Shown here one piece after another: positions 6,660-58,438 of a stretch of DNA of 59,445 bases (position 1 is the first letter of the stretch; every line of letters starts with the position of its first letter). The stretch is from a virus, in IMG/VR virus record IMGVR_UViG_3300023435_000002, positions 1-59,445 of that record. One strand, written 5' to 3'. The translations under genes and the position numbers were made by a program. Below the pieces are notes generated by a model. It did no database searches and was not told the origin of the DNA. It saw only the letters and a program-made list of their open reading frames with translations.

Positions 6660-6788
6660 ATGATAAAAAATATAAAAAAAGAAACGGTAGAAGAAATAAG
6701 AGCTTTTTTAAAGTTTATTTCTGAAACATATGTCTTTGACCAAATGGCTATAACAGTGGCAAATAGATTAAGGAGAGAAATAAAATGA
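6660..6788 (+). CDS. Small ORF, 42 aa, first gene of the que operon
   Basis: Internal ATG of track ORF 6564..6788. The upstream part of that ORF runs through the structured element E1. ATGA overlap with queD. Confidence 0.4.
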   Translation: MIKNIKKETVEEIRAFLKFISETYVFDQMAITVANRLRREIK

Positions 6789-7204
6789 TAATAAAAGAAC
6801 AAACAAAATTCGATTTCGACTCAGCCCACAGGTTAGTTGGATATAAAGGATTGTGTAATAATTTACATGGTCATATTTGGACAGTTATAATTGATATTGA
6901 AGGAACAGAAAAAGATTTGGATGAGGTTGGAATACTTTGGGATTTTACTAATGTAAAAAAGATAAAGACAATCTTTGACCATAAAACTATTCTAAAGAAT
7001 TGTGATGAGAATCTAGCATTAATTAAAGAAATTAAAAGAACATGTGGAGCAGATGCAGTATTTGTAATGCATGATAATCCAACAGCTGAACATTTAGCTA
7101 TGTTAATTTTACAAACATTAGAACTTGAAAATGATAAGTTAAAGTTTAAAGTAAAAGTTTACGAGACCCCTAAAAGTTATGCGGAGGTGACTTCAAAATT
7201 ATAG
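6785..7204 (+). CDS. queD: 6-carboxy-5,6,7,8-tetrahydropterin synthase
   Basis: FDFDSAHRL...GLCNNLHGHIW (catalytic Cys plus HGH zinc motif). The size of about 139 aa fits. Confidence 0.85.
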   Translation: MIIKEQTKFDFDSAHRLVGYKGLCNNLHGHIWTVIIDIEGTEKDLDEVGILWDFTNVKKIKTIFDHKTILKNCDENLALIKEIKRTCGADAVFVMHDNPTAEHLAMLILQTLELENDKLKFKVKVYETPKSYAEVTSKL

Positions 7205-8616
7205 TGCACGAAATCTTCCGGTCAATTCAAGGGGAATCTACATACTCAGGTAAACCATGTATATTTGTAAGACTTGCTGGTTGCAATCTAAATTGTAGTT
7301 ATTGTCTTGTTGGTAATACTAAAATATTAACACCATTTAATAAATGTAGAAAGGGTATAAAAATAAAAGACTTAAAAAAAGGTGATAAAGTATTTTCTTT
7401 TAATGAAAAAAATAAAAAAATAGAAATAGATACAATAAAAAAAACTTTTTGTCGAGAAGTAAATGAGGTTCTTAAAATAACATTTAAGGATGGATGTAAT
7501 CAAAACGATAGAATATATACAACAAGTGAACATCCTTTTTATGTAGAAGGTAAGTGGATTACAGCTGGAAATTTAAAAATTAATGATGAACTTTGGTTTG
7601 CTGAATCTGTGAAAATTGAAAAAATAAAAAAAGGAAGAGCAAGATTATTTGGAAAAGATAATCCCAACTGGCGAGGAGGTATAGAACAAGCAAAATATAC
7701 TCATTGTCATAAAGAATGGAAACTAATGAGACAAAAAATACTAAAACGAGATGAATATACTTGTAAAAAATGTAAGTCAAAGGAAGACTTAGTGGTACAC
7801 CATATTGATTTTAATACAAGCCATAATACTGAAGATAATCTATGTGTATTATGTAGAAAATGTAATAGTAGTATAAATCATGGAAGATATGATTTTAAAA
7901 TACATAATGGAAAACAAATCATTAAGATAGAAAAAATATCAATAGATTCAAATAAAAAAGCATATATAAGACTATCAGGAAGTCAGAATAAAAAAATAAA
8001 AGTTTATAATATTGAAACTGAAAAAAATAATAATTATTTTGCTCCACGGGTTTTAGTACATAATTGTGATACAAAATATTCAGTTAGAACCTCACAAGGA
8101 AAGATAAAAAGTGTTCGTCAAGTATTTAGTGAAGTAAAAGCATTATATAAAGATGGAGATATAGTTGAGATTACAGGTGGAGAACCAATGTTACAAAAGA
8201 AAGAAGTGTTGGAACTTTCAAGAAAAATAATAAATAAATTGCAAGCTACAGTTTTAATAGAAACAAATGGTAGTATTTTATTAGAAAGAATATCCGAAGA
8301 ACCATATAATATTATTTACATAATGGATTGGAAATGTCCTAGTAGTGGAATGAATGATAAAATGGAATATGTTAATTTAGAAAGACTTACAGAATTTGAT
8401 GAGTTAAAATTTGTAATCGGAACACAAGAAGATTATGATGAAATGAAAAGAATAATTACTAAGTATAATCCAAGGTGTACAATACTAGCGAGTACAGTTT
8501 GGAATAAAATAAAGAGAGAAGATGTAGTAAAACAAATATTAGCAGACGGACTAAATGTTACATTTCAAGTCCAGATACATAAAATAATTTGGGATAAGAA
8601 TAAGAGGGGTGTTTAA
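7204..8616 (+). CDS. queE: 7-carboxy-7-deazaguanine synthase (radical SAM), interrupted by an intein
   Basis: GTG start. EIFRSIQGES...RLAGCNLNCSY-[254 aa]-CDTKY. Removing the insert restores CNLNCSYCDTKY. Confidence 0.85.
   Translation: MHEIFRSIQGESTYSGKPCIFVRLAGCNLNCSYCLVGNTKILTPFNKCRKGIKIKDLKKGDKVFSFNEKNKKIEIDTIKKTFCREVNEVLKITFKDGCNQNDRIYTTSEHPFYVEGKWITAGNLKINDELWFAESVKIEKIKKGRARLFGKDNPNWRGGIEQAKYTHCHKEWKLMRQKILKRDEYTCKKCKSKEDLVVHHIDFNTSHNTEDNLCVLCRKCNSSINHGRYDFKIHNGKQIIKIEKISIDSNKKAYIRLSGSQNKKIKVYNIETEKNNNYFAPRVLVHNCDTKYSVRTSQGKIKSVRQVFSEVKALYKDGDIVEITGGEPMLQKKEVLELSRKIINKLQATVLIETNGSILLERISEEPYNIIYIMDWKCPSSGMNDKMEYVNLERLTEFDELKFVIGTQEDYDEMKRIITKYNPRCTILASTVWNKIKREDVVKQILADGLNVTFQVQIHKIIWDKNKRGV
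7303..8064 (+). mobile_element. Intein (254 aa) with an HNH endonuclease domain
   Basis: Starts CLVGNTKILT. Has block-B-like TSEHPFY. Ends KVYNIETEKNNNYFAPRVLVHN, followed by Cys+1. The internal domain reads CKKC...HHIDFN...EDNLCVLCRKCN (HNH). Confidence 0.8.
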
Positions 8617-8617
8617 G

Positions 8618-8746
8618 ATGAAAAAGGAAAAAAATATAAATACTATAGAAGAGTTATTAAGAAGTAGAAGAAAATACCCACTAGCTACATTATCATTAAT
8701 TAAAGATATTGCAAGAAGAGTTAAAACATTGGAGAAGAAAAAATGA
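8618..8746 (+). CDS. Small ORF, 42 aa, hypothetical
   Basis: The ATG lies 2 nt after the queE stop. ATGA overlap with the next gene. Confidence 0.35.
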   Translation: MKKEKNINTIEELLRSRRKYPLATLSLIKDIARRVKTLEKKK

Positions 8747-9144
8747 AAAATAAAATATACATGAGTTGGGAAGATTTTGGATTAGCTCTTGATGAGTTAG
8801 TTGAAGAGATTGATGATAATTCTTTTGTAGATTATGATGGAGTATTTGGAATGCCAAGAGGTGGACTTCCCGTTGCAGTAGCTCTTTCTCATAAGTTAAA
8901 TTTACCATTAGTATATAATGCAGAAGATATTACAAATAATACATTAGTTGCTGATGATATAAATGATACTGGTAATACTCTTAATGAAATTTCTAAATGT
9001 AATGATATTGCTACAATATATCAAGCTCCGTGGTCGAGTTTCACTTCAAACTTTTTTGTAAGACATAAAGTATCAAAAGATACTTGGATTATATTTCCTT
9101 GGGAAGATTGGGAAACAGAATTAAATACGGAGGATTCGGAATAA
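8743..9144 (+). CDS. Type I phosphoribosyltransferase, Gpt-like (xanthine/guanine PRTase family)
   Basis: YMSWEDF..., PRGGL, VADDINDTGNT (PRPP loop) and KDTWIIFPWE parallel the E. coli Gpt layout as I recall it. Confidence 0.7.
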   Translation: MKNKIYMSWEDFGLALDELVEEIDDNSFVDYDGVFGMPRGGLPVAVALSHKLNLPLVYNAEDITNNTLVADDINDTGNTLNEISKCNDIATIYQAPWSSFTSNFFVRHKVSKDTWIIFPWEDWETELNTEDSE

Positions 9145-9187: not shown

Positions 9188-9853
9188 ATGTTAGATAAAA
9201 GTAAGTGTGATGTAAAACTTGGAAAGAAGGTGAATAAATATTTAATTAAAAAAAGGGTACAAACTCCTATGAGTCACGATATTTTTTGTGAGGATGATAA
9301 GTTATCAGTAATTGAAGGTGAGATGAGATGTATAATGGAAATGCTTGGATTAGACTTAGAGGATGACAGTCTAAAAGAAACTCCTAAAAGAGTTGCTAAG
9401 ATGTTTGTTAATGAATTATTTTGGGGATTAGAAGAATGTAATTTTCCTAAATGTACAGTTGTGGATAATAAAATGAAATATGATGAGATGGTTTTAGAAA
9501 AGAATATTAAAAGTATGAGTAATTGTGAGCATCATTTTGTAACTATTGATGGAGTGGCTCATATTGCATATATACCAAATAAAAAGGTTCTTGGATTAAG
9601 CAAATTAAATAGAATAGTAGAATACTTTAGTAGACGACCACAAATACAAGAACGATTAACCGAACAAATATTTTATGCTTTAGAGTGTATTTTAGGAACT
9701 TCCGATATTGCAATAGTAATGGAAGGAGAGCATTATTGTGTAAAAAGTAGAGGGGTGGAAGATATTAATAGTAGTACAATCACGAGTAAATTAGGAGGAG
9801 TATTCAAAACAAAGCCAACAGTAAGAGCTGAGTTTATGAGTTTAATAAAATGA
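9188..9853 (+). CDS. folE: GTP cyclohydrolase I
   Basis: ETPKRVAKMF, SNCEHHF, SRRPQIQERLT, EGEHYCVKSRG. Confidence 0.9.
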   Translation: MLDKSKCDVKLGKKVNKYLIKKRVQTPMSHDIFCEDDKLSVIEGEMRCIMEMLGLDLEDDSLKETPKRVAKMFVNELFWGLEECNFPKCTVVDNKMKYDEMVLEKNIKSMSNCEHHFVTIDGVAHIAYIPNKKVLGLSKLNRIVEYFSRRPQIQERLTEQIFYALECILGTSDIAIVMEGEHYCVKSRGVEDINSSTITSKLGGVFKTKPTVRAEFMSLIK

Positions 9854-10569
9854 TTACAATAAAAAAGAATATTAAAGAATTTATTTCTCTTTTAGATATT
9901 ATAAAAAATGTTGCTGCAGAAACTAATTTTGAATTTAGAGAAGAAGGATTGTTTGTAAGGTTTGCTCATTTGTCTGGTTTTTCATTAGGACTTCTAACAT
10001 TAAAGAAAAGTTTCTTTGATGAATATACCATGCCAAAAGAAACTATAATTGCAATTGATACTCTTTTATTTTATAAGATTATTAAAAAATTAGGAAAGAA
10101 AGAATTAAAAATTGAGATTACAGAGAATGGATGTGAAATAAAGGTTGTTTCAGGTAAGTCTTTTTTTGCATTGAAAACTTATACAGTTCCAAAGGATGAG
10201 CGGGATATTCCAAAACCAAACTATGAATCTTCATGGACAATTGATTGTATGGATTTTTTTAATTTAATAACAGAACATTTAGAATTTACTACTGTAGCAA
10301 GATTTGAAAGTAAAGATGATACGTTAAAAACTACAATAAAATCAAATATGATTTCAGGAGAAGTATTTACTACAGCTGTGCCAATATTAAAATGTGACAC
10401 TTTTGCTTTTTATGACATTAGTTATTTAGTTACAGTATTGGGTATAAAATCAATGGTTGATAAAATTGAATTTTCTTTTGGAAAAGATGTACCTTGTAAA
10501 GTTGGATGTCACAATGAAGATATTACATTTGAATGGTATTTGGCTCCTAGAGTGGGGGACGAGGATTAA
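9850..10569 (+). CDS. PCNA-like sliding clamp
   Basis: 239 aa. The N-terminus FISLLDIIKNVAAETNFEFREEGLFVRFAHLSGFSLGLLTL follows the PCNA pattern, and size and position fit. ATGA overlap with folE. Confidence 0.6.
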   Translation: MITIKKNIKEFISLLDIIKNVAAETNFEFREEGLFVRFAHLSGFSLGLLTLKKSFFDEYTMPKETIIAIDTLLFYKIIKKLGKKELKIEITENGCEIKVVSGKSFFALKTYTVPKDERDIPKPNYESSWTIDCMDFFNLITEHLEFTTVARFESKDDTLKTTIKSNMISGEVFTTAVPILKCDTFAFYDISYLVTVLGIKSMVDKIEFSFGKDVPCKVGCHNEDITFEWYLAPRVGDED

Positions 10570-10902
10570 ATGTCAAGCTTTATTTGGATTACTACACAAT
10601 TTGAAGGATTTCACAAATATCCAGACGCACCTGATGAAGTTAAATTTTTAAAATTAACTCATAGACATATATTTAAATTAAAAGTATGGATTGAAGTTTT
10701 TCATGATGATAGAGATATTGAATTCTTTATTTTTAAAAAATATGTAAATACTTTAATTAGTGAATCCAACTTGGATTATATGAGTTGTGAAATGATTAGT
10801 GATAAATTACAAGGGATAATAACTAAAAAATATCCTGATAGAAAAATAAAAATTGAAGTATCAGAAGATGGTGAAAATGGGAGTTATATAGAATATGAAT
10901 GA
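10570..10902 (+). CDS. QueD/PTPS-like T-fold paralog lacking the catalytic Cys
   Basis: TTQFEGFHKYPDAPDEVKFLKLTHRHIFKLKVWIEV aligns by eye to the QueD FxxAHxL...C..LHGHxF segment. It has HRH in place of HGH and no Cys. Confidence 0.45.
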   Translation: MSSFIWITTQFEGFHKYPDAPDEVKFLKLTHRHIFKLKVWIEVFHDDRDIEFFIFKKYVNTLISESNLDYMSCEMISDKLQGIITKKYPDRKIKIEVSEDGENGSYIEYE

Positions 10903-11329
10903 TTTTTGGATTGGTACTGAGATGGAAGGTAGATTCACTGGATTAAGAACATTATTTATTAAGGGTGACCAAAATTTATCTGATATAGTTAAAATATTGA
11001 ATTCTTATAAAGTAATTTCTCATTTATATTTTGGTGCTGGACATCAATATCCTGTTTTTAGATATAATAGAATGATGGAGTTAGTTGATAAAGGATATGT
11101 AATAACATTTGAAATATCAAATGAATGTTTACAATTTGTACCACATCATATTATTAAATGTAAACAAATTCATATGATAGTTACATTTAAAAATAAGAAT
11201 GTTGCTTTATTAAAACCAACAGACACAATCAAAGTTGAGGATAGAACTAATGTTTATGCAACATCATTATGCACTATGTACCATACTGATAAAAATGTGG
11301 CATATGAAGGGGATGTGGTTATAAAATGA
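10895..11329 (+). CDS. Hypothetical protein (144 aa) inside the deazaguanine island
   Basis: ORF track. Overlaps both neighbours. I recognise no motif. Confidence 0.6.
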   Translation: MNDFWIGTEMEGRFTGLRTLFIKGDQNLSDIVKILNSYKVISHLYFGAGHQYPVFRYNRMMELVDKGYVITFEISNECLQFVPHHIIKCKQIHMIVTFKNKNVALLKPTDTIKVEDRTNVYATSLCTMYHTDKNVAYEGDVVIK

Positions 11330-12477
11330 GTACTGTATGGTATTTACCTTTGGAAATTGTAAGTAGTAGGTATACTCAACAACTTTGTGGAAAATGGATA
11401 CCTGACGGTATTAAACAATATATTAAATCAGAGGATACTTTTAAAGTAATAGAAGGTACTTCAATTGATACAGAAATTAAAGTTGGTTGTGTATTGGATG
11501 CAACTGGTAGAGGAATTTATAGTTTAACACAAGTTGCAAAGTTTTTAGAAGAAATAAGAAATGGTAATGTTAAGGATAATGATATTGTTTATATTCAGGA
11601 TATGTGGACACCAGGAATAGAGGCAATTCAATATGCAATTGATTTATATAAAATGAAATTAAAAATATATACAATGTGTCACGCACAATCTGTTGATACA
11701 TATGATTTTACATATACAATGAAGGAATGGATGCGACCAATAGAATTAGGTTATGACAAAATGTTTAAATATGGTGGAATTTTTGTTGGTTCTAGTATTC
11801 ATAAAAAACAATTAAGAAAAGCTGGATTTAAAGCACCAATTTTTATAGTGAGTTTACCTTTTTGTTATAATGAAGTTAAAGAAAGAATAAAAGATTTTCC
11901 TAAAAATAATGAAAACGCAATTGTATTTTCTTCAAGATTGGATTGGGAAAAGAAACCATTATTTATGTTAAGTGTGGTAAAAAAGTTTTTAAAGAAATAT
12001 CCTGATTGGAAAATATATGTTACAACTTCAGGGAAAGAAATAAGAAGTAATCAGGAAGGTGTTGTTAAAAAATTAAGGGATTATGCAAATAAAAATAGTA
12101 GATTTATATTAAAAGAGGGAATAACAAAAGACGAATATTATAGGCTGTTGTGTTCCTCAAAAATACAATTAAATACTTCATTGCAGGATTATGTTAGTTG
12201 GACAGTAATTGAATCTACCATATGTGAATGTGATATTTGTTTTCCAGACTTTAGAAGTTTTCCTGAGTTTATTCCAAATGATAGACTTTATAAAACTTGG
12301 AAAGTAAATAGTGTACTAGAAATATTAGACAAATGTATTACTAATCCTAAAAATCATGATTGGATAGCTAAAATATCTGACTTTGGTCGTTTAACAGAAT
12401 GTAATATTATGTGTAATGATATAAAGCATGAAGTAAATGTATGGGATTCAATTCCTGATTTTATAGATGCAAATTAA
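11326..12477 (+). CDS. Putative GT-B fold glycosyltransferase
   Basis: The C-terminal half (AIVFSSRLDWEKKPLFML...KIYVTTSG...) looks like a GT-B Rossmann domain. The call is weak and based on motifs only. Confidence 0.4.
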   Translation: MSTVWYLPLEIVSSRYTQQLCGKWIPDGIKQYIKSEDTFKVIEGTSIDTEIKVGCVLDATGRGIYSLTQVAKFLEEIRNGNVKDNDIVYIQDMWTPGIEAIQYAIDLYKMKLKIYTMCHAQSVDTYDFTYTMKEWMRPIELGYDKMFKYGGIFVGSSIHKKQLRKAGFKAPIFIVSLPFCYNEVKERIKDFPKNNENAIVFSSRLDWEKKPLFMLSVVKKFLKKYPDWKIYVTTSGKEIRSNQEGVVKKLRDYANKNSRFILKEGITKDEYYRLLCSSKIQLNTSLQDYVSWTVIESTICECDICFPDFRSFPEFIPNDRLYKTWKVNSVLEILDKCITNPKNHDWIAKISDFGRLTECNIMCNDIKHEVNVWDSIPDFIDAN

Positions 12478-13612
12478 AATTCCTGAATTGAATAGTAGAT
12501 ACATTCCTGTTCATGGTGGTTATGGTCATGTAGAAAAACATATGAATTGGTGGAGTGCTGATTCTCCTTATTTATATGAATTTGGATTATTTAATTTATT
12601 ACACTTTAAAAAAGAACAGATGAATATTATTAGAGGTCAATCTCCTAATATGTTTATTTTAACTGATAGTGGAGGTTTCCAGGTTGTTTCAGGTACTTGT
12701 AATTTGAATTGGGAAACTTCAATTTTACAACAAATTAGATTAAAAGCATCAAAAATATTTTCGTTAGATAAACCAACAGTACACCAAAAGGCATCAGAGG
12801 GTTCATTAACAAATTTTGTTTACATGAATGATACGGAGGCATTTGCAACTATTAAAGATAATTTTGATGTTGCTTTAAAACAATCAAAATATTTAAAAGA
12901 AAAATACCCTGAGGAATTTAAAAAATTTTGTTATATTATGCAAGGTAAATCAATTAATCAAATTGACTATAATATGAACCTATTTAAAGAGGAATTAGGT
13001 GGTGTTGATAAGTATTTGGAATATTTTCCTGGTGGAATAGTATATGCCTCAAAGGGTGGTGATAACTTATTTATTTCTATGGCAGCAAGACATGCCTATG
13101 ATAATTTTGTTTCTAAAGGAATTTATGTACATTTTTTAGGTATGGGTTCATTTTATAGAATGATTATTTTAATTAGAAATATGATTTCAACTTTTGATAG
13201 TTCAACATTATTACAAGGTGTACGAGTAAATGAATTTATTAATCCTTTAAATTTAAATAACACATTACAATTATCATCAGAAAATTTATCTGGTTTTACG
13301 AAGGAGTTTTGTGTATGTCCTGTTTGTAGTGTAACAGATTATCATGATTTAATGAAAAATGATAAACAAGAAATTGGAAGAAAATGTACAATGCACAACC
13401 TATGGCATTTATTAAAAATGAATATATTTTTGGATTCAATTCCTAAGGACAATTACACAACTATTATAATTAAAAATTTTAAAATAAGTGATGATGTTAA
13501 ACGTTCTTTAGAATTTTTAGATTGTTGCGACCAATATGGGTTTAACATTGCCTATAATAAGTATAAACACTATCTTAAAAAAGATATAACTAAACAAACA
13601 AGTTTATTTTAA
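12467..13612 (+). CDS. dpdA: DpdA-like DNA 7-deazaguanine transglycosylase (TGT superfamily)
   Basis: LTDSGGFQV catalytic motif and CVCPVCS...TMHNLWH zinc site. At 381 aa it has no PUA or C-terminal ArcTGT domains. Confidence 0.8.
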   Translation: MQIKIPELNSRYIPVHGGYGHVEKHMNWWSADSPYLYEFGLFNLLHFKKEQMNIIRGQSPNMFILTDSGGFQVVSGTCNLNWETSILQQIRLKASKIFSLDKPTVHQKASEGSLTNFVYMNDTEAFATIKDNFDVALKQSKYLKEKYPEEFKKFCYIMQGKSINQIDYNMNLFKEELGGVDKYLEYFPGGIVYASKGGDNLFISMAARHAYDNFVSKGIYVHFLGMGSFYRMIILIRNMISTFDSSTLLQGVRVNEFINPLNLNNTLQLSSENLSGFTKEFCVCPVCSVTDYHDLMKNDKQEIGRKCTMHNLWHLLKMNIFLDSIPKDNYTTIIIKNFKISDDVKRSLEFLDCCDQYGFNIAYNKYKHYLKKDITKQTSLF

Positions 13613-17795: not shown

Positions 17796-18037
17796 GAAAA
17801 AAAGGGTCAGTAAATTATCAATATAAAATAAGACAAGTTGCTCAAAATCAACAAGGTACTCTTATACATGCTATTACAATCCCAAATTTTATTGCAGAAA
17901 AATTTAAAAATACAAAATTTATTTTAAAATTAGAAAATAATTGTATGATATTTAGTTCTGGATGTGATATAAAAGTTATGTCTAAAGATGATTCCTTTTT
18001 TGATAAATATACAAAAGAAAAGGAGATTGTACAATGA
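17792..18037 (+). CDS. Hypothetical protein, possibly AbrB-like
   Basis: GTLIHAITIPNFIAEKF weakly resembles a SpoVT/AbrB hairpin. ATGA overlaps. Confidence 0.5.
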   Translation: MRKKGSVNYQYKIRQVAQNQQGTLIHAITIPNFIAEKFKNTKFILKLENNCMIFSSGCDIKVMSKDDSFFDKYTKEKEIVQ

Positions 18038-19281
18038 CAAAAAATATAACTTGGCTTTCCGATAGTGCATTCTTACCAACTGGGTATGCCACTATGACTC
18101 TACATATTTTAAATGGATTATCAGAATTAAAAAATGAAGATGGAACTCCAAAATATAATTGTCATCAATTAGCTCATAATTATGTAGGACAAACTCAAAT
18201 TCCAGGAACTACTTTTGAAGATGGAACTAAAACTAACTTTACAATTCATGGAAATGGATTAAGACCATATTGTCAAGATATTATTACCCATAAATTACAA
18301 GAATTAGATACAGATGTATTTGTTACGTTATTAGATACTTTCATGGTGGCACCATTCTATCCACAACATGATTTTGGTAAAGCAAAAACAGTGTTCTATT
18401 ATCCAAGTGATGGTGGTTCAGGGTTACCTTTTGGATGTGAAACTACATTACAAAAAATGGATAAATCTATTTCAATGAGTAGATATGGAAAAGAACAAGT
18501 GGAAAGTATGCATAAAATTTCAAGTGGATTTATTCCACATGGTATTAATATAGATATGTTTCATCCATTAGAACCAGAACAAAAAATTGAAATTAAAAGA
18601 ATAATGGGAATTAAAGATAAGTTTGTTATTGGAACAGTCGCAAGAAATCAAGGTAGAAAAATGTTAGATAGAACAATTAAAGCCTTTGCATTATTTGCAG
18701 AGGGTAGAGATGATGTAGTTTTAGTTATGCATTGTGACCCTCAAGACCCAGCGGCAGTATCTTCTTTACCACAATTGATTGAAAGATATGGAGTACAGAA
18801 TAAAGTAATTTTTACTGGTATGAGATATTTTAAAGGATTTACATATGACCAAATGAATGACGTGTTTAATTGTATGAATATGTTTATACTCACCACTTCT
18901 GGAGAAGGTTTTGGAATGCCTATATTAGAAGCCATGGCATGTGGAGTTCCAGCTTTAGTAACTAACTATACAACCACTCAAGAGTTAGTTTTGGATAATG
19001 ATGCCGGATTGGGAATAAATTTAGTAGGAACAGAAGAAGACGAAAATCCAAAGGTCCATGAAAATGAAATAGTTAATGGAACAATAACTGGTGGATTTGC
19101 TGTTGAAAGAGGAATTTGTTGTTTAAAGGATGCAGCACTAAAAATGAAATTCTTTTATGATAATAGAGAAGAAGGAATACGAATGGGAAAAAATGGTAGA
19201 AAAGCAGTATTAAAACAATATGATTGGAAATTAATTATAAATCAGTGGGATGAAGTTATGGAGGAACTAACTAGATTATGA
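18034..19281 (+). CDS. Glycosyltransferase, GT-B (family 4-like)
   Basis: FVIGTVARNQGRK... and TTSGEGFGMPILEAMACGVPALVTNYTTTQELV (EX7E region). Confidence 0.8.
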   Translation: MTKNITWLSDSAFLPTGYATMTLHILNGLSELKNEDGTPKYNCHQLAHNYVGQTQIPGTTFEDGTKTNFTIHGNGLRPYCQDIITHKLQELDTDVFVTLLDTFMVAPFYPQHDFGKAKTVFYYPSDGGSGLPFGCETTLQKMDKSISMSRYGKEQVESMHKISSGFIPHGINIDMFHPLEPEQKIEIKRIMGIKDKFVIGTVARNQGRKMLDRTIKAFALFAEGRDDVVLVMHCDPQDPAAVSSLPQLIERYGVQNKVIFTGMRYFKGFTYDQMNDVFNCMNMFILTTSGEGFGMPILEAMACGVPALVTNYTTTQELVLDNDAGLGINLVGTEEDENPKVHENEIVNGTITGGFAVERGICCLKDAALKMKFFYDNREEGIRMGKNGRKAVLKQYDWKLIINQWDEVMEELTRL

Positions 19282-20465
19282 GTCAGGTAGATTTAGTTAA
19301 CTTAAATGAAAGAGGAATACTTGACCATGCGGGTGATAGAGTTCCAACAGGATTATTAAGTATAGCTAGTTCAATGAGAGCTAAAGGACATCCCACAGAT
19401 ATATATGATTTAAATAAATTTTCTGAGGAGGCTTTTGTTGAACATGTTAATTATAGTGAACCTGATGCAGTGGGAATATCAGTTTACACAAGTCCAATGT
19501 TAGAGAGAGCCAAAGAGTTAGCCGGAAGATTAAAAGGAAAAACTAGATTAGTAGCAGGTGGATATCATGCAACAGCAATGCCGGAAAGCCTATTACCATA
19601 TTTTGATGCAGTAGTAGTTGGAGAAGGAGAGAATGCACTTGAAAGAGCATTAAGAGAAGATGGAGTAATTCCAAGAGATACTCCAGACTTAAATGAAACT
19701 CCTAATATAAACTTAAATGAATTAGGGGAATATACAATTGATGGAAGACAAGGAACAATGATAACAAGTAGAGGATGTCCTTATTCGTGTTCATTCTGTG
19801 GTAATTTTTCAAGTAAAGTAAGAGATGAACCACTTTGGAAAATGCAAGAACAAATAAGACAATTAGAAAAAAATGGAGTAGAGTCAGTTTATTTTTTAGA
19901 TGACATGTTTACCTTACGAGAAGATAGAATGGATGAAATAGGAATGATGGCACAGAATGCTGGGTTGGCATTTAGAGCTACAACTAGAGCAGACTCTCTA
20001 AATGATAGTAAGTTAGATAAATTAAAATCAAGAGGATGTGAAGTATTAAGTTTGGGAGTAGAGAGTGGGAATGAAGAAATACTAAAGAGAATTAATAAAA
20101 GGGAAACACCAGAACAAATATATGAAGCAGTAAGAAAGGCTGGAGAGAGAGGAATAGATACTAAAGGTTTCTTTATAATGGGACTTCCAGGAGAGACAGA
20201 AGATACAGCTAGGGATACAATGAACTTTTCAAGAAAACTTAAAAAAGCAGGAATGAAGCAAGCAGACTTTTACTATCTTTGTCCCTTCCCTGGAACTCCA
20301 ATATGGAATTACCCAGAGAAATTCGGAATAACTATAAAAGATAGAGATTTTACTAAATATTTACAAGCCGGTCAAAGTGCAAGATGTGTAATAGATACTG
20401 AAGAATTAAGTGCACAAAGAATCGAGGAACTAACAGAGGAGGCTAGAAGACAATGGAAAAATTAA
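19278..20465 (+). CDS. B12-binding-domain radical SAM enzyme
   Basis: N-terminal Rossmann-like LLSIASSMRAKGH...AVGISVYTS...LVAGGYHAT, then ITSRGCPYSCSFCGN (CX3CX2C). Confidence 0.8.
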   Translation: MSQVDLVNLNERGILDHAGDRVPTGLLSIASSMRAKGHPTDIYDLNKFSEEAFVEHVNYSEPDAVGISVYTSPMLERAKELAGRLKGKTRLVAGGYHATAMPESLLPYFDAVVVGEGENALERALREDGVIPRDTPDLNETPNINLNELGEYTIDGRQGTMITSRGCPYSCSFCGNFSSKVRDEPLWKMQEQIRQLEKNGVESVYFLDDMFTLREDRMDEIGMMAQNAGLAFRATTRADSLNDSKLDKLKSRGCEVLSLGVESGNEEILKRINKRETPEQIYEAVRKAGERGIDTKGFFIMGLPGETEDTARDTMNFSRKLKKAGMKQADFYYLCPFPGTPIWNYPEKFGITIKDRDFTKYLQAGQSARCVIDTEELSAQRIEELTEEARRQWKN

Positions 20466-21697
20466 TAGTAATGATTATGGGACAGAATTGTGAAAAATTT
20501 ATTAAGATGTGTTTAGATAGTACTGAAGATGCAGATGCAAGAATATATTGTGATGGTGGTAGTACGGATTCAACTCTTGATATAGTAGAGAATAGAATAG
20601 GAAAGAAGTCAATAATAAGCAATAAGTATGACCAAGAGGATAAAAAGATGAATGGAAAGCAAAGGAACTTTTATTTAAAATATTTGAAAGAAAACTATCC
20701 AGACCATTGGGCACTTTGTTTAGATGCTGACGAAGTAGTAGAAGACTTGAGTAAGATTAAAGAGTTTATTAACGACCCATTAGGAGAAGGTTTGTTTTCT
20801 GTAAAGATGAGACATTTGATTCAGGATTTAGCGCATGAGGATGCAACTGCTGAAACTCATTATGTTCTAAACAGATTGTTTAAAATAAATAAAGCCGATA
20901 AATATCCAGAAGTTGAACATCCAGTGTTACAAGGTGAAGTAGTGGGAGGAACAGCTTGTACGACAATCTGGCATCTTGCGTACATTCCAAACTTATGGGA
21001 CATCAAGAAACGTTATGATAGCCACATGAAAAAGTCACAAATGCACACACCAGAGTATTTAGCAAGTTGGTACAAAGCACATTTGTTTGGTCAATATCCA
21101 ACTAAACAATTCAACCCTGTGGAGTTACCAAAAGTAATATTAGATGAATTTGGGCTTGATAAGGATGAACTTTATTTTATGAATAGAGGATTGGAGACTA
21201 AACATTTTATAATGGCTAAGCAATGGCACAACTTTTTTGATGATGATGATAAAATGTTTGAAGTATTAGAATTTGGTTGTGGTAGAGCACCGTACGGATA
21301 TGCATTTGATATGATTGATGAAGAATGTTATATGGGAATAGAATTAAGTAAATATGCAGTAGACAATTCATTACTTCGTCACGATGTTTTGCAAGGTAAT
21401 GTAATTGATTGTTACCTTGAAACAGAAGTTAAATTAGTGATAGCATTTGATTTATTAGAACATCTAAAATATAAAGACTTAGATAAAGCTATTAACAATA
21501 TAATAAACCATTCAAGTAAATACATTCTAATAAGTGTTCCAGTACTAGGAGACCCAAACCTAGAAGCAGACCCAACACATATAATCAAAGAAACTAAAGA
21601 ATGGTGGATTAAACAATTCACAGACAAAGATTTAAAATTAATTAAAACACCAGAACATTTTCTGTTTAAGGAGCAGATTATGATATTTGAAAAATGA
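20453..21697 (+). CDS. Fusion of a GT-A (family 2-like) glycosyltransferase and a class I SAM methyltransferase
   Basis: N-terminal part: IMGQNCEKFIKMCLDS...YCDGGSTDSTLDIV...LDADE. C-terminal part: VLEFGCGRAPYG...AFDLLEHL. Confidence 0.65.
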   Translation: MEKLIVMIMGQNCEKFIKMCLDSTEDADARIYCDGGSTDSTLDIVENRIGKKSIISNKYDQEDKKMNGKQRNFYLKYLKENYPDHWALCLDADEVVEDLSKIKEFINDPLGEGLFSVKMRHLIQDLAHEDATAETHYVLNRLFKINKADKYPEVEHPVLQGEVVGGTACTTIWHLAYIPNLWDIKKRYDSHMKKSQMHTPEYLASWYKAHLFGQYPTKQFNPVELPKVILDEFGLDKDELYFMNRGLETKHFIMAKQWHNFFDDDDKMFEVLEFGCGRAPYGYAFDMIDEECYMGIELSKYAVDNSLLRHDVLQGNVIDCYLETEVKLVIAFDLLEHLKYKDLDKAINNIINHSSKYILISVPVLGDPNLEADPTHIIKETKEWWIKQFTDKDLKLIKTPEHFLFKEQIMIFEK

Positions 21698-21846
21698 AAC
21701 TACAAGAATACTTAAAAAAATCACTAGAAGAAATATCTAAACAATGTATAACCACTGCAGAAATAGAATTAATATTAGACGATAAATTAAACGTAACTGA
21801 AAAAGGCCATCAAAGAATTTCTTTAACATTATACACAATAAAATGA
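21694..21846 (+). CDS. Small ORF, 50 aa, hypothetical
   Basis: ATGA junctions on both sides fill the 146-nt gap in the track. Confidence 0.4.
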   Translation: MKLQEYLKKSLEEISKQCITTAEIELILDDKLNVTEKGHQRISLTLYTIK

Positions 21847-22358
21847 ACTACACACATAGAGATTTAGCAATGGAAGAAGTTGAAAAGTTTAGAGAAGAGA
21901 ACTTCCCACAAAGAGTTTTGGAAATAGGCGCAGGGCATAATTCTTTTGAATATATTTTTAATGCTAATAGATATACTTGTATTGATAATCAATCTCAATA
22001 CAAAGGGAAATCAATAAAGATGGATGTTCATAATATGACATTTGAAGATGATGAATTTGATTGTGTATTTATGTGTCACGTTGCAGAACATTTTATTAAT
22101 CTAGCACAAGCATTTTCAGAAATAAAAAGAGTACTAAAAGATGGTGGAAAAGTATTTAGTATTACACCTAATAATTGTGAACATCAGATTTTAAAAGGTG
22201 ACGGAGACCATATATTTGTATTAGGACCAATGCAATGGATTAGATTATTAGCTAATTTAGGATTTAAAAATATTAAAAGTTATAAACAAATGACATGGAA
22301 AGAAGGACAGATTCTAAAGGAACAAGATTATAATATAATAACGGTGGCTGAAAAATGA
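21843..22358 (+). CDS. Class I SAM-dependent methyltransferase
   Basis: VLEIGAGHNS, FDCVFMCHVAEHF, LKDGGKVF. Confidence 0.75.
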   Translation: MNYTHRDLAMEEVEKFREENFPQRVLEIGAGHNSFEYIFNANRYTCIDNQSQYKGKSIKMDVHNMTFEDDEFDCVFMCHVAEHFINLAQAFSEIKRVLKDGGKVFSITPNNCEHQILKGDGDHIFVLGPMQWIRLLANLGFKNIKSYKQMTWKEGQILKEQDYNIITVAEK

Positions 22359-23212
22359 AAAGAATAGATGGACTAATTGATGTAATGATTTGTACAAGAG
22401 ATAGGCCCACAGAACTTGCACTATTACTTCAAAGTTTAAGAACTCAAACATATCAGAAGTTTGATTTGTATATAGTGGATGATTGTAGTGGTACACCACT
22501 GAATAACTTCCATTTTTTAGGTTGTATGATTAATAGATTAAAATTAGAAGGTCATAAAGTAAAGGTAGTTAGAAATGATTTTACATTAGGAGTAAGTAAG
22601 AATAGACAAAAGGCAGTTGATTTAGTTATGAAAGAAGGTTATGGAGAATTATGTGCTAGGTTGGATGATGATGTTATTGTGGAACCTGATTATTTTGAGA
22701 AGTTGCTAATAGTTTTAGATAAAGGATATGATTTTGCTTCTGGAATCACCTCCCCTTTTATGAATGAAAATCCAAAAAGAAAAACAGAATTTGTTAAACC
22801 TATAATCAACGAAGTCGTATTAGGGGAGGCTGGTGATATCATTAAGAATGGTGATGATTGTGGATATGAATACCTAGATACAGCAATCATACCCACTCAC
22901 CACTTTAGAAGTTGTGGAATATATAAAAAGACTATTCATGATGCAGGAGTAGATTATTTTAATCATTTTGGTAAACATGGATATAGAGAAGAACAAATTC
23001 TTAGTTTTAGAATGATACTTGCCGGATTTAAGATTGGTGTTCACACTACAGCAAATGCTAGGCATCTATTAACACCAAGTGGTGGAGAGAGATTTGCTAC
23101 TCAAAATGAAATGGTTCAAGAGAATGAAAAAGAATTACATAGATGGACAAAAGAACAATTTGAAAAGAATGGAGATTTTATTAGTAAATATACTGAGGAG
23201 GTTTTGAAATGA
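22355..23212 (+). CDS. Glycosyltransferase, GT-A (family 2)
   Basis: DVMICTRDRPTELALLLQSLRTQTYQKFDLYIVDDCS and RLDDD. Confidence 0.8.
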   Translation: MKRIDGLIDVMICTRDRPTELALLLQSLRTQTYQKFDLYIVDDCSGTPLNNFHFLGCMINRLKLEGHKVKVVRNDFTLGVSKNRQKAVDLVMKEGYGELCARLDDDVIVEPDYFEKLLIVLDKGYDFASGITSPFMNENPKRKTEFVKPIINEVVLGEAGDIIKNGDDCGYEYLDTAIIPTHHFRSCGIYKKTIHDAGVDYFNHFGKHGYREEQILSFRMILAGFKIGVHTTANARHLLTPSGGERFATQNEMVQENEKELHRWTKEQFEKNGDFISKYTEEVLK

Positions 23213-23508
23213 AAATAATTAATATTCCAAGACAATCTGGAAAAACAACTACTATAATAAAAGAAATGTTAAACACTAAAAATGACGTAATGGTTGTATT
23301 TTCTCAAATGTCAAAAGAACTTATAGTAAAAGATAATCCTACTTTAAAAAATAGAGTATTGACAATAGATGAATGTAGAGAAATTAATAGACTTAGAGGA
23401 TTTAGAAAAATACACATTGATAATTTAAATGAATGTTTAGGTATATTTGGAGAAGTAGGAATAGTCACAATGACTAACTATCCAGTAAAAGGAGAATTTG
23501 AAATATGA
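23209..23508 (+). CDS. Small P-loop NTPase
   Basis: PRQSGKTTTI Walker A motif. 99 aa. Confidence 0.5.
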   Translation: MKIINIPRQSGKTTTIIKEMLNTKNDVMVVFSQMSKELIVKDNPTLKNRVLTIDECREINRLRGFRKIHIDNLNECLGIFGEVGIVTMTNYPVKGEFEI

Positions 23509-23741
23509 AATTGCAATTAGAACTTTGGAAAGTAAATGGGATAGATGGAGGGACTAGGATTCGTTATAATAGAAGTGCTGAGTGGGAGCATATGAGTGAA
23601 GAATTGATGATTGGAGGATTTGCCCAAGGATTAACTACATTACCAGAATTGTGTAAATATGAACCCGAAAATGCTCCGCCATATATTGATGTATTAGTCA
23701 ATTTTATAATAGAAGGTAAAGTGGCGGTGTTGATACAATGA
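23505..23741 (+). CDS. Hypothetical protein
   Basis: ORF track. ATGA overlaps. Confidence 0.55.
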   Translation: MKLQLELWKVNGIDGGTRIRYNRSAEWEHMSEELMIGGFAQGLTTLPELCKYEPENAPPYIDVLVNFIIEGKVAVLIQ

Positions 23742-24874
23742 AAGTAAATTTGTATGGTTCAATCTGGGGCTGCTCAGGATATGCAAATCATACTAAACAT
23801 TTAGTTAATGCATTATGTGATATTGGTGTAGACGTTTCTCTACAATCACAAGTTCCTCAAGGATGGGAAAGGGTTGTTAATGATAATGAATTAAAGATGA
23901 TTACTAAACCAATTCACATGGATGGAATAGATTTAATGATTGACCTACCTACAAATTGGAAAATGGTATCTAGTGAGAGACAACCATTTATTGGATTCTT
24001 AGTTTGGGAGGGAGATAAAATTCCTGAGTATTGGATTGATTATTTATTAGATGATGCAGTTACACAGATTTGGGTTCCTAGTCAGCATACAAAGAAGGCT
24101 ATTGAGAATACTATAGCTAATATGAAAAATGACGAATTTCCAATATTATCTACAAACGAAATTAATATACTAAATAAAATAAAAATAGTACCTCACGGAG
24201 TAGATAAAGAAATATTCAAACCGGAAGAACCTAAAAAAGAGAAAGAAGTATTCACATTCATAGCTACTAAAGGCTGGAGGCACAACTTAGATAGAGGAGG
24301 TTTACAATATCTAATAAAAGCATACTCAGAAGAATTTACATCTAAGGATAAAGTGGAGATGTTGATTAAACTAAATACTGCTTATGGTATTCCAGATATT
24401 CAACAATTACTAACAGAATTAGATATTAAAAACGTGGATAAACCCAAGTTGTCATTTATTACTCAAGAGATGACTCTTAAAGACCTTAATAATTTTTATA
24501 ATTATGGGGATGTATTTGTTTCTACAACAATGGCAGAAGCATTTAATCTCGGAGGAATAGAAGCAATGGCTTGTGGTAAACCTACTCTACAAACTAACTT
24601 CGGTGGACAAACGGATTATATGACAAGGGATAATAGTTTTAAAATAAATAAAGGTGAAATGATTCCAGTTACTTGGGAAACAATGTATGAGGAAGTTTGT
24701 TGGTTTAAACCGGATATAGATGATATTAAGAAACAACTAAGATATTGTTTTGAGAATAAAGATATAGTAAAAGCAAAAGGAAAGAATGCAAAACTAACTA
24801 CTGATAAATGGACATGGATAGAGAGTGCGAAGAAAGCAAAAGTATGTTTAGAGGAGATTAATAATGACAAATAA
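23738..24874 (+). CDS. Glycosyltransferase, GT-B (family 4-like)
   Basis: VFVSTTMAEAFNLGGIEAMACGKPTLQTNFGGQTDYM. Confidence 0.75.
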   Translation: MKVNLYGSIWGCSGYANHTKHLVNALCDIGVDVSLQSQVPQGWERVVNDNELKMITKPIHMDGIDLMIDLPTNWKMVSSERQPFIGFLVWEGDKIPEYWIDYLLDDAVTQIWVPSQHTKKAIENTIANMKNDEFPILSTNEINILNKIKIVPHGVDKEIFKPEEPKKEKEVFTFIATKGWRHNLDRGGLQYLIKAYSEEFTSKDKVEMLIKLNTAYGIPDIQQLLTELDIKNVDKPKLSFITQEMTLKDLNNFYNYGDVFVSTTMAEAFNLGGIEAMACGKPTLQTNFGGQTDYMTRDNSFKINKGEMIPVTWETMYEEVCWFKPDIDDIKKQLRYCFENKDIVKAKGKNAKLTTDKWTWIESAKKAKVCLEEINNDK

Positions 24875-56850: not shown

Positions 56851-56996
56851 AAGGTTGTGGAAAAATAATTAACAAAAGATTCTTTAGCAATAGAGATAAT
56901 CAAATTTGTGGAAGAAGAGGTTATCTATGTCTACCATGTTCAGATAAAGAAGACGCAGTGCAGGGAAATCACGCTGTTGGGAGTAAAAATGGGTAA
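56847..56996 (+). CDS. Small Cys-rich ORF, 49 aa
   Basis: MKGCGKIINKRFF...CGRRGYLCLPC. ATGA junction upstream, and it overlaps the methyltransferase start. Confidence 0.4.
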   Translation: MKGCGKIINKRFFSNRDNQICGRRGYLCLPCSDKEDAVQGNHAVGSKNG

Positions 56997-58304: not shown

Positions 58305-58438
58305 TGGGATATTTTATAGGGTTACTTATTGGAATAGTAATGGGATTTTATTGGGGTTATATTTTTAGAGGTCATAATGAAATAAAAATAATTAACAACG
58401 CACTTGCCACAGATTCAGTAACGGAGGAGAAATTATAA
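58304..58438 (+). CDS. Small membrane ORF, 44 aa
   Basis: MGYFIGLLIGIVMGFYWGYIF...NNALATDSVTEEKL*. TAATG junctions. Confidence 0.4.
   Translation: MGYFIGLLIGIVMGFYWGYIFRGHNEIKIINNALATDSVTEEKL

Follow-up and report, generated by a model that had tools for sequence, protein, structure and literature searches.

To our knowledge, phage DNA has so far yielded eight derivatives of 7-deazaguanine, none of them carrying a sugar, and the only route proposed for 2'-deoxy-7-deazaguanosine (dDG), through DpdL and DpdA, has never been reconstituted. DpdL, a Cys-less QueD paralog with the motif LxxxHRHxF, was put forward in 2023 as the decarboxylase of 7-carboxy-7-deazaguanine (CDG), an activity never demonstrated (PMC10516641). 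The DNA of phage phiST contains plain dDG, and expression of dpdL together with dpdA from either ACP17 or phiST in E. coli gave no dDG, and the authors suggested that further enzymes could be required; the DpdA3 and DpdA4 enzymes, expressed alone in E. coli, were inactive (PMC10516641). That study (Cui, Hutinet et al., NAR 2023; PMC10516641) makes no mention of a glycosyltransferase or a phosphoribosyltransferase, and our search of the literature found no published link of a glycosyltransferase to DpdA or DpdL.

The locus considered here lies in a 59,445-nt stretch of viral DNA (IMG/VR record IMGVR_UViG_3300023435_000002; the whole stretch is called the window below) that shows no nucleotide similarity to known phages at blastn sensitivity. 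With the dDG pathway of phiST it shares FolE, QueD and QueE in the absence of QueC, a DpdA-family transglycosylase, and an LxxxHRHxF QueD paralog homologous to ORF1, the first of three genes directly upstream of dpdA. Unlike the window, phiST has DpdL and DpdA without ORF2 and without a glycosyltransferase, none being found within 8 kb on either side of phiST dpdL. The phiST gene at the place of ORF2, CGPG_00066, was considered as its equivalent and rejected, the two proteins being unrelated by hhalign (probability 0.2%).

Gene content of the locus

QueD (CPH4 synthase; 6785..7204, on the plus strand like all genes given here) was identified by Pfam PTPS at E 1.1e-22, and its translation shows the catalytic CxxxHGH motif as CNNLHGH. 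QueE (CDG synthase, a radical SAM enzyme; 7204..8616) is interrupted by a 254-aa intein with an HNH endonuclease (nt 7303-8064), inserted within the cluster motif, CNLNCSY|C; with residues 34-287 removed, the spliced sequence of 216 aa shares 58% identity with the QueE of locus L003, which is uninterrupted. Then follow a purine phosphoribosyltransferase of the xanthine/guanine type (8743..9144; Pfam Pribosyltran, E 9e-7; PDB relatives 1vdm and 4z1o), which is found in long loci and kept in most related clusters, and FolE (GTP cyclohydrolase I; 9188..9853; Pfam GTP_cyclohydroI, E 7.2e-62). Homology identifies FolE, QueD and QueE as the enzymes predicted to make CDG. The absence of QueC reported in the earlier note holds within the window, which may be a partial genome: there is no SGGxDS PP-loop in any frame and no Pfam match among the ORFs scanned.

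The three genes of interest, ORF1 (10570..10902, 110 aa), ORF2 (10895..11329, 144 aa) and ORF3 (11326..12477, 383 aa), begin one base past the stop of an upstream clamp gene and run into dpdA (12467..13612). Their coordinates confirm that they are coupled by overlaps upstream of dpdA, as had been described: ORF1 and ORF2 share 8 nt (ATGAATGA), ORF2 and ORF3 share 4 nt (ATGA), and ORF3 overlaps dpdA by the 11 nt originally given. A second cluster in the window carries four more glycosyltransferases.

ORF1, a DpdL

The assignment of ORF1 starts from its match to phrog_17812 (E 4.7e-29) and from tblastn matches to the DpdL of ACP17 (48.7% identity, E 4e-26) and to phiST CGPG_00067 (34.8% identity, E 3e-12), among 29 matches in phage records. 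Its segment LKLTHRHIF fits the LxxxHRHxF pattern at the site where the window's own QueD has CNNLHGH, and at the family level DpdL and QueD align by hhalign with a probability of 93.8% (E 1.8e-7, 117 columns), with the Leu placed on the catalytic Cys. The surroundings are those in which DpdL is found, with FolE, QueD, QueE and DpdA present in the window and QueC not. ORF1 is therefore, as was suspected from the letters alone, a T-fold QueD paralog without the Cys; it is not an unassigned gene, since the family was named in 2023 (PMC10516641), but DpdL, a putative CDG decarboxylase.

ORF2, a remote relative of QueE

ORF2 had been taken for an orphan. This is not the case: an exhaustive HMMER search recovered a family of 152 representative clusters, and it was the only search to do so, as Pfam, PHROGs, NCBIfam, tblastn against phages, a word-indexed protein search and profiles against the PDB returned nothing or the query alone. 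The family was not found in bacterial or archaeal genomes, and we consider it new, that is, previously undescribed. Across 61 aligned sequences Glu9, Glu11 and Phe21 are invariant, and Glu73, Lys113, Tyr137 and Asp140 are almost so.

Two lines of evidence point to QueE as a remote relative. The ORF2 model (pLDDT 95.6) has E. coli QueE as its closest fold, at a TM of 0.51, a Foldseek probability of 0.82 and an E of only 0.48; the fold search against the PDB gave no significant match (best E 0.058), and resemblances to DNPH1/Rcl nucleotide hydrolases and to metallo-beta-lactamases were dropped as weak (TM <= 0.37). In profile comparison, ORF2 aligns with a 34-sequence QueE alignment over about 130 columns (hhalign probability 48%, E 1.8e-4), as against a probability of at most 0.5% for seven control families; an earlier comparison with 6 QueE sequences had covered only the N-terminal 25 columns, at 4.8%. 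The motifs that correspond are GxExEGxxxGxxTLFI with QGEGxxxGxPxxFvR of QueE, YFGAG with TGGEP, ITxE with IETNG, and IKxE with lKFVv. Neither CxxxCxxC nor Cx14CxxC, the 4Fe-4S motifs, occurs in the 61 aligned sequences, and hhalign places a gap at the cluster loop; without that loop, radical SAM chemistry would be impossible for ORF2. Nor does ORF2 conserve the site at which QueE has an Arg for binding the CPH4 carboxylate (PMC5347944). Taken together, a QueE-like origin is moderately supported by profile and model, and no other relative was found. With QueE as its only remote relative and with acidic residues, Lys, His and Tyr conserved, ORF2 has the look of an enzyme; it probably acts as one, or as a subunit that binds the base.

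Natural DpdL::ORF2 fusion proteins (P0321, P0141 and P0153) were found, and one such fusion gene is followed by the glycosyltransferase and then by a 420-aa ORF at the place where DpdA would be expected.

ORF3 and its DpdA neighbor

The GT-B-like character attributed to ORF3 is borne out by its AlphaFold2 model (pLDDT 92.8), which has two Rossmann-like domains in a GT-B arrangement and finds BshA, MshA, PimA and glycogen synthase in Foldseek (E 1e-13 to 1e-10). The best 50 PDB matches are all of the GT4, GT5 or GT20 type and act on small molecules and polymers, and neither the T4 alpha- or beta-glucosyltransferase nor any other known DNA glucosyltransferase is within them. ORF3 itself scores 17.8 bits against Pfam Glycos_transf_1, below the cut-off of 26.4, and 32 of 40 members of its family match PF00534 at E <= 0.01. 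In those 40 sequences, at a mean column identity of 55%, Arg204, Lys209 and the pair Asp288-x7-Glu296 are invariant, their counterparts in the alignment with a GT-B enzyme of known structure being its RLDK and DGMN..LE motifs; the equivalent of the E-x7-E motif is thus D-x7-E, with Asp rather than Glu as the first acidic residue. On fold and motifs together, ORF3 is assigned as a GT4-type GT-B glycosyltransferase. Since the donor-binding Arg and Lys and the D-x7-E are kept and the fold is confident, it looks catalytically active, as a prediction from sequence and model.

There are 731 homologs of ORF3, annotated by JGI as cell-wall glycosyltransferases. With bacterial and archaeal genomes also searched, the family is confined to viral or virus-like contigs, the only occurrences in the bacterial and archaeal data being four viral-looking MAG contigs. 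Its median pI of 5.9 is not notably basic and so gives no sign of DNA binding; isoelectric points proved uninformative as a hint in this respect.

The DpdA-like DNA guanine transglycosylase carries in its translation the DSGGFQ motif, with the catalytic Asp, and the zinc motif CxCxxC...H, and it has motif-level matches to the DpdAs of other clusters, its DSGGFQ lining up with the same motif in one of them. Against Pfam TGT it reaches 22.4 bits, below the cut-off of 26.3 (E 7.3e-5), and it has no tblastn match in GenBank phages; an iterated DpdA HMM gave 86 ORF matches across the loci examined.

Conservation of the gene neighborhood

Synteny was surveyed in the best 80 of 218 glycosyltransferase loci, of which 68 were non-duplicate and had upstream sequence. 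In every one of these 68, ORF2, DpdL or both lie within 1.6 kb of the glycosyltransferase (ORF2 only in 42, both in 20, DpdL only in 6), and DpdA adjoins it in 63 of 67, immediately downstream in 60 and upstream in 3; because they come mostly from related marine phages, the counted loci are not independent observations. The association is common to all 8 deep glycosyltransferase lineages, cut at 50% identity, and is kept despite a shuffled gene order in the distant loci L091-L093. More than 200 viral contigs carry the glycosyltransferase gene, and the gene set occurs in the cultured phages ACP17, PA5oct, X1, BCSR5, BUCT-ZZ01 and Phosso. The neighborhood is thus conserved in related viral contigs, a check that the earlier note had called for, and with the gene fusions this synteny strongly supports its view that all three genes belong functionally with dpdA.

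Related clusters also carry extra glycosyltransferases and a sugar epimerase. In BCSR5 and X1 a PIG-L/LmbE-like deacetylase, the X1 protein being linked to that of BCSR5 at E 2e-11, immediately precedes ORF2 in the ORF2-glycosyltransferase unit; no deacetylase occurs in the window. A 238-aa protein downstream of DpdA, conserved in the marine loci, has no Pfam or PDB match and, from its size and its neighbors, a dUTPase and a clamp loader, may belong outside the module, as a sliding clamp.

What the module may make

The gene context makes it plausible, and considerably better founded than when first suggested from the sequence alone, that the three genes convert CDG, or the base once installed, into something else, possibly a glycoside. 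The reading that we prefer, at a probability of about one half, is more specific: ORF1, ORF2, ORF3 and dpdA would make up a single conserved module for tailoring and insertion in a 7-deazaguanine DNA-modification pathway that has no QueC, with a glycosylated 7-deazaguanine in DNA as its product. DpdL, as a descendant of QueD, and ORF2, as a descendant of QueE that has lost its Fe-S cluster, would retain the pterin- and deazapurine-binding scaffolds of their parent enzymes and act jointly on the deazapurine base, most likely to take off or alter the 7-carboxyl group. DpdA would insert the tailored base into phage DNA in exchange for guanine, and the phosphoribosyltransferase probably recycles the released guanine to GTP for the pathway. 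ORF3 would move a sugar from a nucleotide-sugar to the tailored base, acting on DNA once the base is inserted or on the free base immediately beforehand; candidate acceptors are the exocyclic N2, which is the site glycosylated in huimycin, the 7-substituent and C7. The synteny, the DpdL::ORF2 fusions, the active look of the glycosyltransferase and the enzyme-like look of ORF2, the GT4 precedent in huimycin, the contrast with phiST, the failure of dpdL plus dpdA to give dDG in E. coli and the resistance of PA5oct DNA to restriction enzymes that cut G-containing sites all count in favor of this reading, as do the extra glycosyltransferases, the epimerase and the BCSR5/X1 deacetylase of related clusters. 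On the other side, neither CDG nor 7-deazaguanine has an evident hydroxyl to accept a sugar, the best 50 Foldseek matches of ORF3 contain no known DNA glucosyltransferase, and its family is not notably basic. The score of ORF3 below the Pfam cut-off, the relatedness of most counted loci, the moderate support for the link of ORF2 to QueE and the second glycosyltransferase cluster of the window also count against it.

The phiST precedent also suggests a more modest outcome, since DpdL without QueC is the combination in the phage where dDG was measured (PMC10516641). The end product in DNA could then be plain dDG, with ORF2 as the missing helper of DpdL or as the true decarboxylase, and with a glycosyltransferase that has some other target, be it a different DNA base, proteins of the virion or the envelope of the host, and that is placed here only through early-gene co-expression. 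The fusions tie ORF2 to DpdL and not to the glycosyltransferase, the JGI label of the homologs is that of cell-wall enzymes, and the separate multi-glycosyltransferase cluster suggests a capacity for glycosylation outside DNA; given those four further enzymes, sugar chemistry may also, or instead, serve other targets. However, co-expression alone hardly explains an adjacency to DpdA in 63 of 67 loci and a proximity to ORF2 or DpdL in 68 of 68, over 8 lineages and through rearranged gene orders. Moreover, the glycosyltransferase family is found only on viral or virus-like contigs, and no hydroxymethylase for another base was found among the window ORFs scanned. We judge this outcome rather unlikely.

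Two further accounts leave the glycosylated DNA base aside. The module might make a soluble glycosylated deazapurine, either a base glycoside like huimycin or a nucleotide formed by the phosphoribosyltransferase as in tubercidin, that would serve as an inhibitor or signal during infection. A GT4-type enzyme does glycosylate a free 7-deazapurine base in huimycin synthesis, tubercidin clusters likewise join CDG, a phosphoribosyltransferase and a decarboxylase without QueC, the phosphoribosyltransferase of the phage cluster is conserved, and the structures nearest to the glycosyltransferase are those of enzymes acting on small molecules. Nevertheless, the most constant neighbor of the glycosyltransferase is DpdA, a DNA transglycosylase, it is the DNA itself that is resistant in PA5oct, and the phosphoribosyltransferase resembles guanine/xanthine salvage enzymes, which fits the recycling of released guanine; a soluble product thus appears improbable. 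It is harder still to credit a role for ORF3 as a GT-B scaffold, non-catalytic or moonlighting, with whose help DpdA would achieve full replacement of guanine (through base flipping or DNA handling, for instance), and for ORF2 as a carrier delivering the base. The inactivity of DpdA3 and DpdA4 alone in E. coli (PMC10516641) and the tight translational coupling of the glycosyltransferase and DpdA genes would suit such a role, but the four donor-binding and acidic residues (Arg204, Lys209, Asp288, Glu296) are invariant in 40 sequences whose mean column identity is 55%, which argues that nucleotide-sugar chemistry has been retained.

Returning to a module for a glycosylated base in DNA, we extend it to the cultured phages only tentatively. 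Phages including ACP17, PA5oct, X1, BCSR5 and BUCT-ZZ01 might replace guanine with a glycosylated 7-deazaguanine by means of a GT4 enzyme obligately coupled to DpdA, the base being tailored by a two-component enzyme, DpdL and ORF2, that arose from inactivated copies of QueD and QueE, and the sugar being elaborated in some lineages by deacetylation to glucosamine or by added glycosyltransferases. Two conserved and previously unnoticed partners have come to light, a QueE-like protein that is in some cases fused to DpdL and a glycosyltransferase adjacent to DpdA, and they offer a concrete explanation for the failed reconstitution of dDG. If the preferred reading is true, these phages would provide the first case of a deazapurine in DNA that bears a sugar. 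Such a hypermodification is predicted to affect restriction, CRISPR and glycosylase-based defenses as well as the sequencing of these phages, and the module is a source of candidate enzymes with which deazapurines in DNA could be tagged with sugars. In evolutionary terms it would also exemplify how the two pathway enzymes on either side of one intermediate can be duplicated, stripped of their original catalytic groups and redeployed together.

Comparison with known systems

The alpha- and beta-glucosyltransferases of the T-even phages are GT-B enzymes that glucosylate 5-hydroxymethylcytosine in DNA from a nucleotide-sugar. ORF3 is likewise a phage GT-B protein, although it is only predicted to decorate an already modified DNA base; no specific similarity between the two was seen in the best 50 Foldseek matches, ORF3 being GT4-like, and its acceptor would be a 7-deazapurine without a hydroxymethyl group. 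The view that a sugar-decorated 7-deazaguanine had not been reported stands for DNA and fails elsewhere, as huimycin and the dapiramicins are N2-glycosylated 7-deazapurine bases outside DNA (PMC7439116), and mannosyl- and galactosyl-queuosine in vertebrate tRNA place a sugar on a 7-deazaguanine derivative within a nucleic acid (PMC12518689). In the tRNA case, the substrate is RNA and the sugar sits on the cyclopentene diol of queuosine, which the pathway of the window could not make. Kinship of ORF3 with the tRNA queuosine mannosyltransferase was also considered and set aside, as Pfam scans gave no match to the N-terminal domain of that enzyme.

Closer in chemistry is HuiG, which puts GlcNAc on the exocyclic N2 of a 7-deazapurine base (PMC7439116; bioRxiv 10.64898/2026.04.15.718813). 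It resembles ORF3 in class and in gene context, being a GT4-type enzyme (PF13439) beside homologs of FolE, QueD and QueE; in contrast to the phage system, huimycin is an actinomycete secondary metabolite, glycosylated as the free base and built from preQ0 after O-methylation, so that QueC is present. In structure, the best matches of ORF3 (E 1e-13) are MshA and BshA, the retaining GT4 GlcNAc transferases of mycothiol and bacillithiol synthesis, at an identity of 10-15% and with an acceptor domain unrelated in sequence. The deacetylase of BCSR5 and X1 belongs to the family of MshB and BshB, the enzymes that follow MshA and BshA.

Results

The window (G+C ~30%) is a fragment of a tailed-phage genome, and its minus strand carries genes for capsid, tail tube and terminase; because an identical ORF2 protein is also found on a 77-kb contig, the window may not be a complete genome. 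The deazaguanine cluster lies on the plus strand and comprises QueD (6785-7204; Pfam PTPS, E 1e-22), QueE (7204-8616), a purine phosphoribosyltransferase of the guanine/xanthine type (8743-9144), FolE (9188-9853; E 7e-62), a PCNA-like sliding clamp (9850-10569), ORF1 (10570-10902, 110 aa), ORF2 (10895-11329, 144 aa), ORF3 (11326-12477, 383 aa) and a dpdA-like ORF (12467-13612). As the earlier note had described, the last four genes overlap (successively by 8, 4 and 11 nt) and no QueC was found: there is no SGGxDS PP-loop in any frame of the window and no Pfam match to QueC among its larger ORFs. Next after dpdA is an ORF of family-B DNA polymerase size; DNA_pol_B domains occur in its counterpart in L003, a related phage contig.

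Several other features of the window deserve mention. The clamp gene sits inside the deazaguanine cluster, between FolE and ORF1 and abutting the ORF1 start codon, and is placed likewise in L003 and another relative, L008. QueE is split by a 254-aa intein (7303-8064) that carries an HNH homing endonuclease and breaks up the radical-SAM cysteine motif between CNLNCSY and the following C; its removal leaves a normal 216-aa QueE, and L003 has no intein. The large terminase (minus strand, 50925-52288) occupies two ORFs with a 4-nt overlap, Terminase_6N (51518-52288) and Terminase_6C (50925-51521), which may reflect gene splitting, a frameshift or an error in sequencing. Near the right end, one ORF (56908-57486) looks like part of an EcoRI-like adenine methyltransferase and another (58438-59241) encodes a further SAM methyltransferase, and DNA methylation may operate alongside the deazaguanine system in this phage.

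ORF1, previously listed as unassigned, falls into the same family as the published DpdL: it matches phrog_17812 (E 4.7e-29) and, by tblastn, 29 phage records, including Acidovorax phage ACP17 (48.7% identity) and Cellulophaga phage phiST (34.8%). DpdL is the name given to phiST protein CGPG_00067 (Cui, Hutinet et al., NAR 2023, PMC10516641), from a phage in whose DNA every G is replaced by 2'-deoxy-7-deazaguanosine (dDG). The assignment of DpdL as a decarboxylase of 7-carboxy-7-deazaguanine (CDG) is a proposal, based on its being a QueD paralogue with CxxxHGH changed to LxxxHRHxF, and no dDG was obtained from dpdL plus dpdA of phiST or ACP17 expressed in E. coli (PMC10516641). In ORF1 the altered motif reads LKLTHRHIF, and family-level hhalign pairs DpdL with QueD at 93.8% probability, the DpdL Leu sitting on the QueD Cys, in agreement with the first reading of ORF1 as a Cys-less QueD paralogue. 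Judged by its sequence, ORF1 is a new member of the known DpdL family, whose function is a proposal only. In Vibrio phage Bakedbeans (L103, 9212-10363) and Chryseobacterium phage MA9V-3 (L104, 9434-10315), both without the glycosyltransferase, DpdL forms the C-terminal part of proteins of 383 and 293 aa, respectively, with no Pfam match to either N-terminal part.

ORF2 had been considered an orphan, and standard searches gave no match; an exhaustive HMMER search nevertheless recovered a family of 152 representative clusters, with proteins of 140-170 aa. Across 61 aligned sequences, three residues never vary (Glu9, Glu11 and Phe21) and Gly7, Gly12, Gly16, Thr19, Leu20, Tyr45, Ala48, Glu73, Lys113, Tyr137 and Asp140 are nearly invariant, a conservation pattern that looks like that of an enzyme. 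The AlphaFold2 model, though confident (pLDDT 95.6), has no significant neighbor in the PDB (best E 0.058), where E. coli QueE ranks first by TM-score and probability (6nhl_B; TM 0.51, probability 0.82). In a viral structure library it matches ACP17 protein A0A218M2X8 (TM 0.73-0.79), presumably the 132-aa gene directly upstream of ACP17 dpdA, equated by organism and length only. When the ORF2 profile was aligned with 34 QueE sequences from related loci, hhalign gave 48% probability (E 1.8e-4, 127-136 columns), as against at most 0.5% for seven control families of the same loci. The aligned motifs run colinear: GxExEGxxxGxxTLFI, YFGAG, ITxE and IKxE of ORF2 with QGEGxxxGxPxxFvR, TGGEP, IETNG and lKFVv of QueE. 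ORF2 has a gap where QueE carries its cysteine-rich cluster loop, and therefore cannot be a radical SAM enzyme. The position equivalent to QueE Arg27, which salt-bridges the carboxylate of CPH4, the QueE substrate (PMC5347944), is variable in ORF2. ORF2 represents a new, widespread family, for which an origin from QueE is likely, though not proven.

For ORF3, the earlier assignment as a GT-B-like glycosyltransferase was borne out. It has 731 homologues, the best 120 at 49-70% identity over 96-100% of length; 32 of 40 sampled family members match Pfam Glycos_transf_1, the window protein itself falling below threshold. The model (pLDDT 92.8) matches BshA, MshA, PimA, glycogen synthase and sucrose-phosphate synthase (E 1e-13 to 1e-10), and T-even DNA glucosyltransferases are absent from the top 50 structure matches. 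When aligned by profile with a solved GT-B enzyme, the invariant Arg204, Lys209, Asp288 and Glu296 coincide with the donor-binding motifs RLDK and D/E-x7-E. By sequence and model, ORF3 is a genuine GT4-type glycosyltransferase.

This glycosyltransferase is encoded by 218 IMG/VR stretches, of which we examined the best 80, together with cultured phages and distant loci. After removal of duplicates, 68 loci extend at least 1 kb upstream of the gene, most of them from related marine phages; within 1.6 kb lie ORF2 only (42 loci), ORF2 and DpdL (20) or DpdL only (6), and in none of the 68 are both lacking. A DpdA-like gene directly follows the glycosyltransferase in 60 of 67 loci with downstream sequence and precedes it in 3, and FolE, QueD, QueE and the phosphoribosyltransferase are close by in most long loci. 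The association is present in all 8 lineages defined at 50% glycosyltransferase identity. In an independent look-up of three distant ORF2 homologues, the glycosyltransferase and DpdL adjoin in all three and DpdA is near in two, with differing gene orders. Cultured phages read ORF2-DpdA-GT-DpdL-QueE (ACP17), ORF2-GT-DpdA-DpdL-QueE (X1), ORF2-GT-DpdA (BCSR5), DpdA-GT-DpdL (PA5oct), GT'-DpdA-DpdL-GT (BUCT-ZZ01, GT' being a second glycosyltransferase) and DpdL-GT (Phosso). DpdL (residues 1-110) and ORF2 (residues 125-262) occur naturally fused in three proteins (P0321, P0141 and P0153); downstream of one is the glycosyltransferase, then a 420-aa ORF that is a putative DpdA by position only. ORF2 and the glycosyltransferase are absent within 8-10 kb on each side of DpdL in the phiST group, RHph_I1_18, Ahp1, D479, Bakedbeans and MA9V-3, and were not found in cellular genomes, except on virus-like MAG contigs. 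CGPG_00066 of phiST, considered as an ORF2 equivalent, is unrelated to ORF2.

Discussion

The reading of these genes as converters of CDG, or of the base in DNA, is thus supported in part. That ORF1, ORF2, ORF3 and dpdA form one functional module is highly probable (roughly 0.85 to 0.9), and comparative sequence evidence establishes DpdL and ORF2 as working partners. DpdL derives from the enzyme that makes CPH4 and ORF2 probably from the one that uses it, and neither retains the parental catalytic group. The simplest scheme, we infer, is that the two proteins hold the deazapurine or pterin ring and modify CDG, the plainest reaction being the decarboxylation already proposed for DpdL; DpdA would then insert the tailored base and the glycosyltransferase would add a sugar to it. 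The phosphoribosyltransferase, embedded in the deazaguanine cluster and kept in most related loci, resembles guanine/xanthine salvage enzymes. It may reuse the guanine that DpdA sets free, or it could make a CDG nucleotide by a tubercidin-like route.

A glycosylated deazaguanine in DNA as the end product is a close call, with odds that we put at even or slightly less. We expect the glycosyltransferase to add a sugar to the base, given its conserved donor site, the very high conservation of its N-terminal (acceptor) half, and its place beside DpdA in 63 of the 67 loci. Supporting hints come from PA5oct, whose modified DNA resists restriction enzymes with G-containing sites (PMC12191111); from huimycin, whose biosynthesis uses a GT4-type enzyme to N-glycosylate a 7-deazapurine base at its exocyclic N2 (PMC7439116; bioRxiv 10.64898/2026.04.15.718813); and from further sugar genes near the DpdA, glycosyltransferase and DpdL genes in Synechococcus phage BUCT-ZZ01 (L002, 6010-7353) and in three other related clusters (L092, 2660-3673; L093, 4530-5342; L091, 8894-9871), namely GT4 or GT2 genes and, in L091, an NAD-dependent sugar epimerase/dehydratase. 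Against a glycosylated base stand the lack of an obvious hydroxyl acceptor on CDG and 7-deazaguanine, the absence of any sign of DNA binding in the ORF3 family, and a separate window cluster with four more glycosyltransferases. This second sugar-chemistry cluster (18034-24874) reads GT4, B12-binding radical SAM enzyme, GT2, SAM methyltransferase, GT2 and GT4; among other candidate roles, it may extend or methylate a sugar attached to DNA, glycosylate virions or act on the host surface. L003 has a GT4 gene ~8 kb downstream of dpdA.

If the predicted product is true, it would be a new DNA modification, and the prediction is directly testable on cultured phages; the module may also explain the published failed reconstitution. 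The claim that no sugar-decorated 7-deazaguanine had been reported stands for DNA, where a literature search found no publication on a glycosylated deazaguanine, and fails outside DNA. A further hint in favor of a sugar comes from Burkholderia phage BCSR5 (L099, 11264-12631) and Xanthomonas phage X1 (L098, 5837-7025), in which two genes directly upstream of ORF2-GT-DpdA encode a PP-loop ATPase resembling PAPS reductase and a PIG-L/LmbE-like deacetylase (N-terminal APHVDDE), with weak Pfam scores for the BCSR5 pair (E 4.7e-5 and 4.7e-4). This echoes the way in which mycothiol and bacillithiol synthesis combine a GT4 enzyme, a deacetylase and an ATP-dependent ligase (MshA/MshB, BshA/BshB), and the analogy hints at a GlcNAc donor and a glucosamine-containing or amide-linked product in these two phages. 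The one DpdL paper that the literature search turned up makes no mention of glycosyltransferases or phosphoribosyltransferases (PMC10516641). Set against what is published, ORF1 is already known, and ORF2 and the link to a glycosyltransferase add new parts to a type of system already described.
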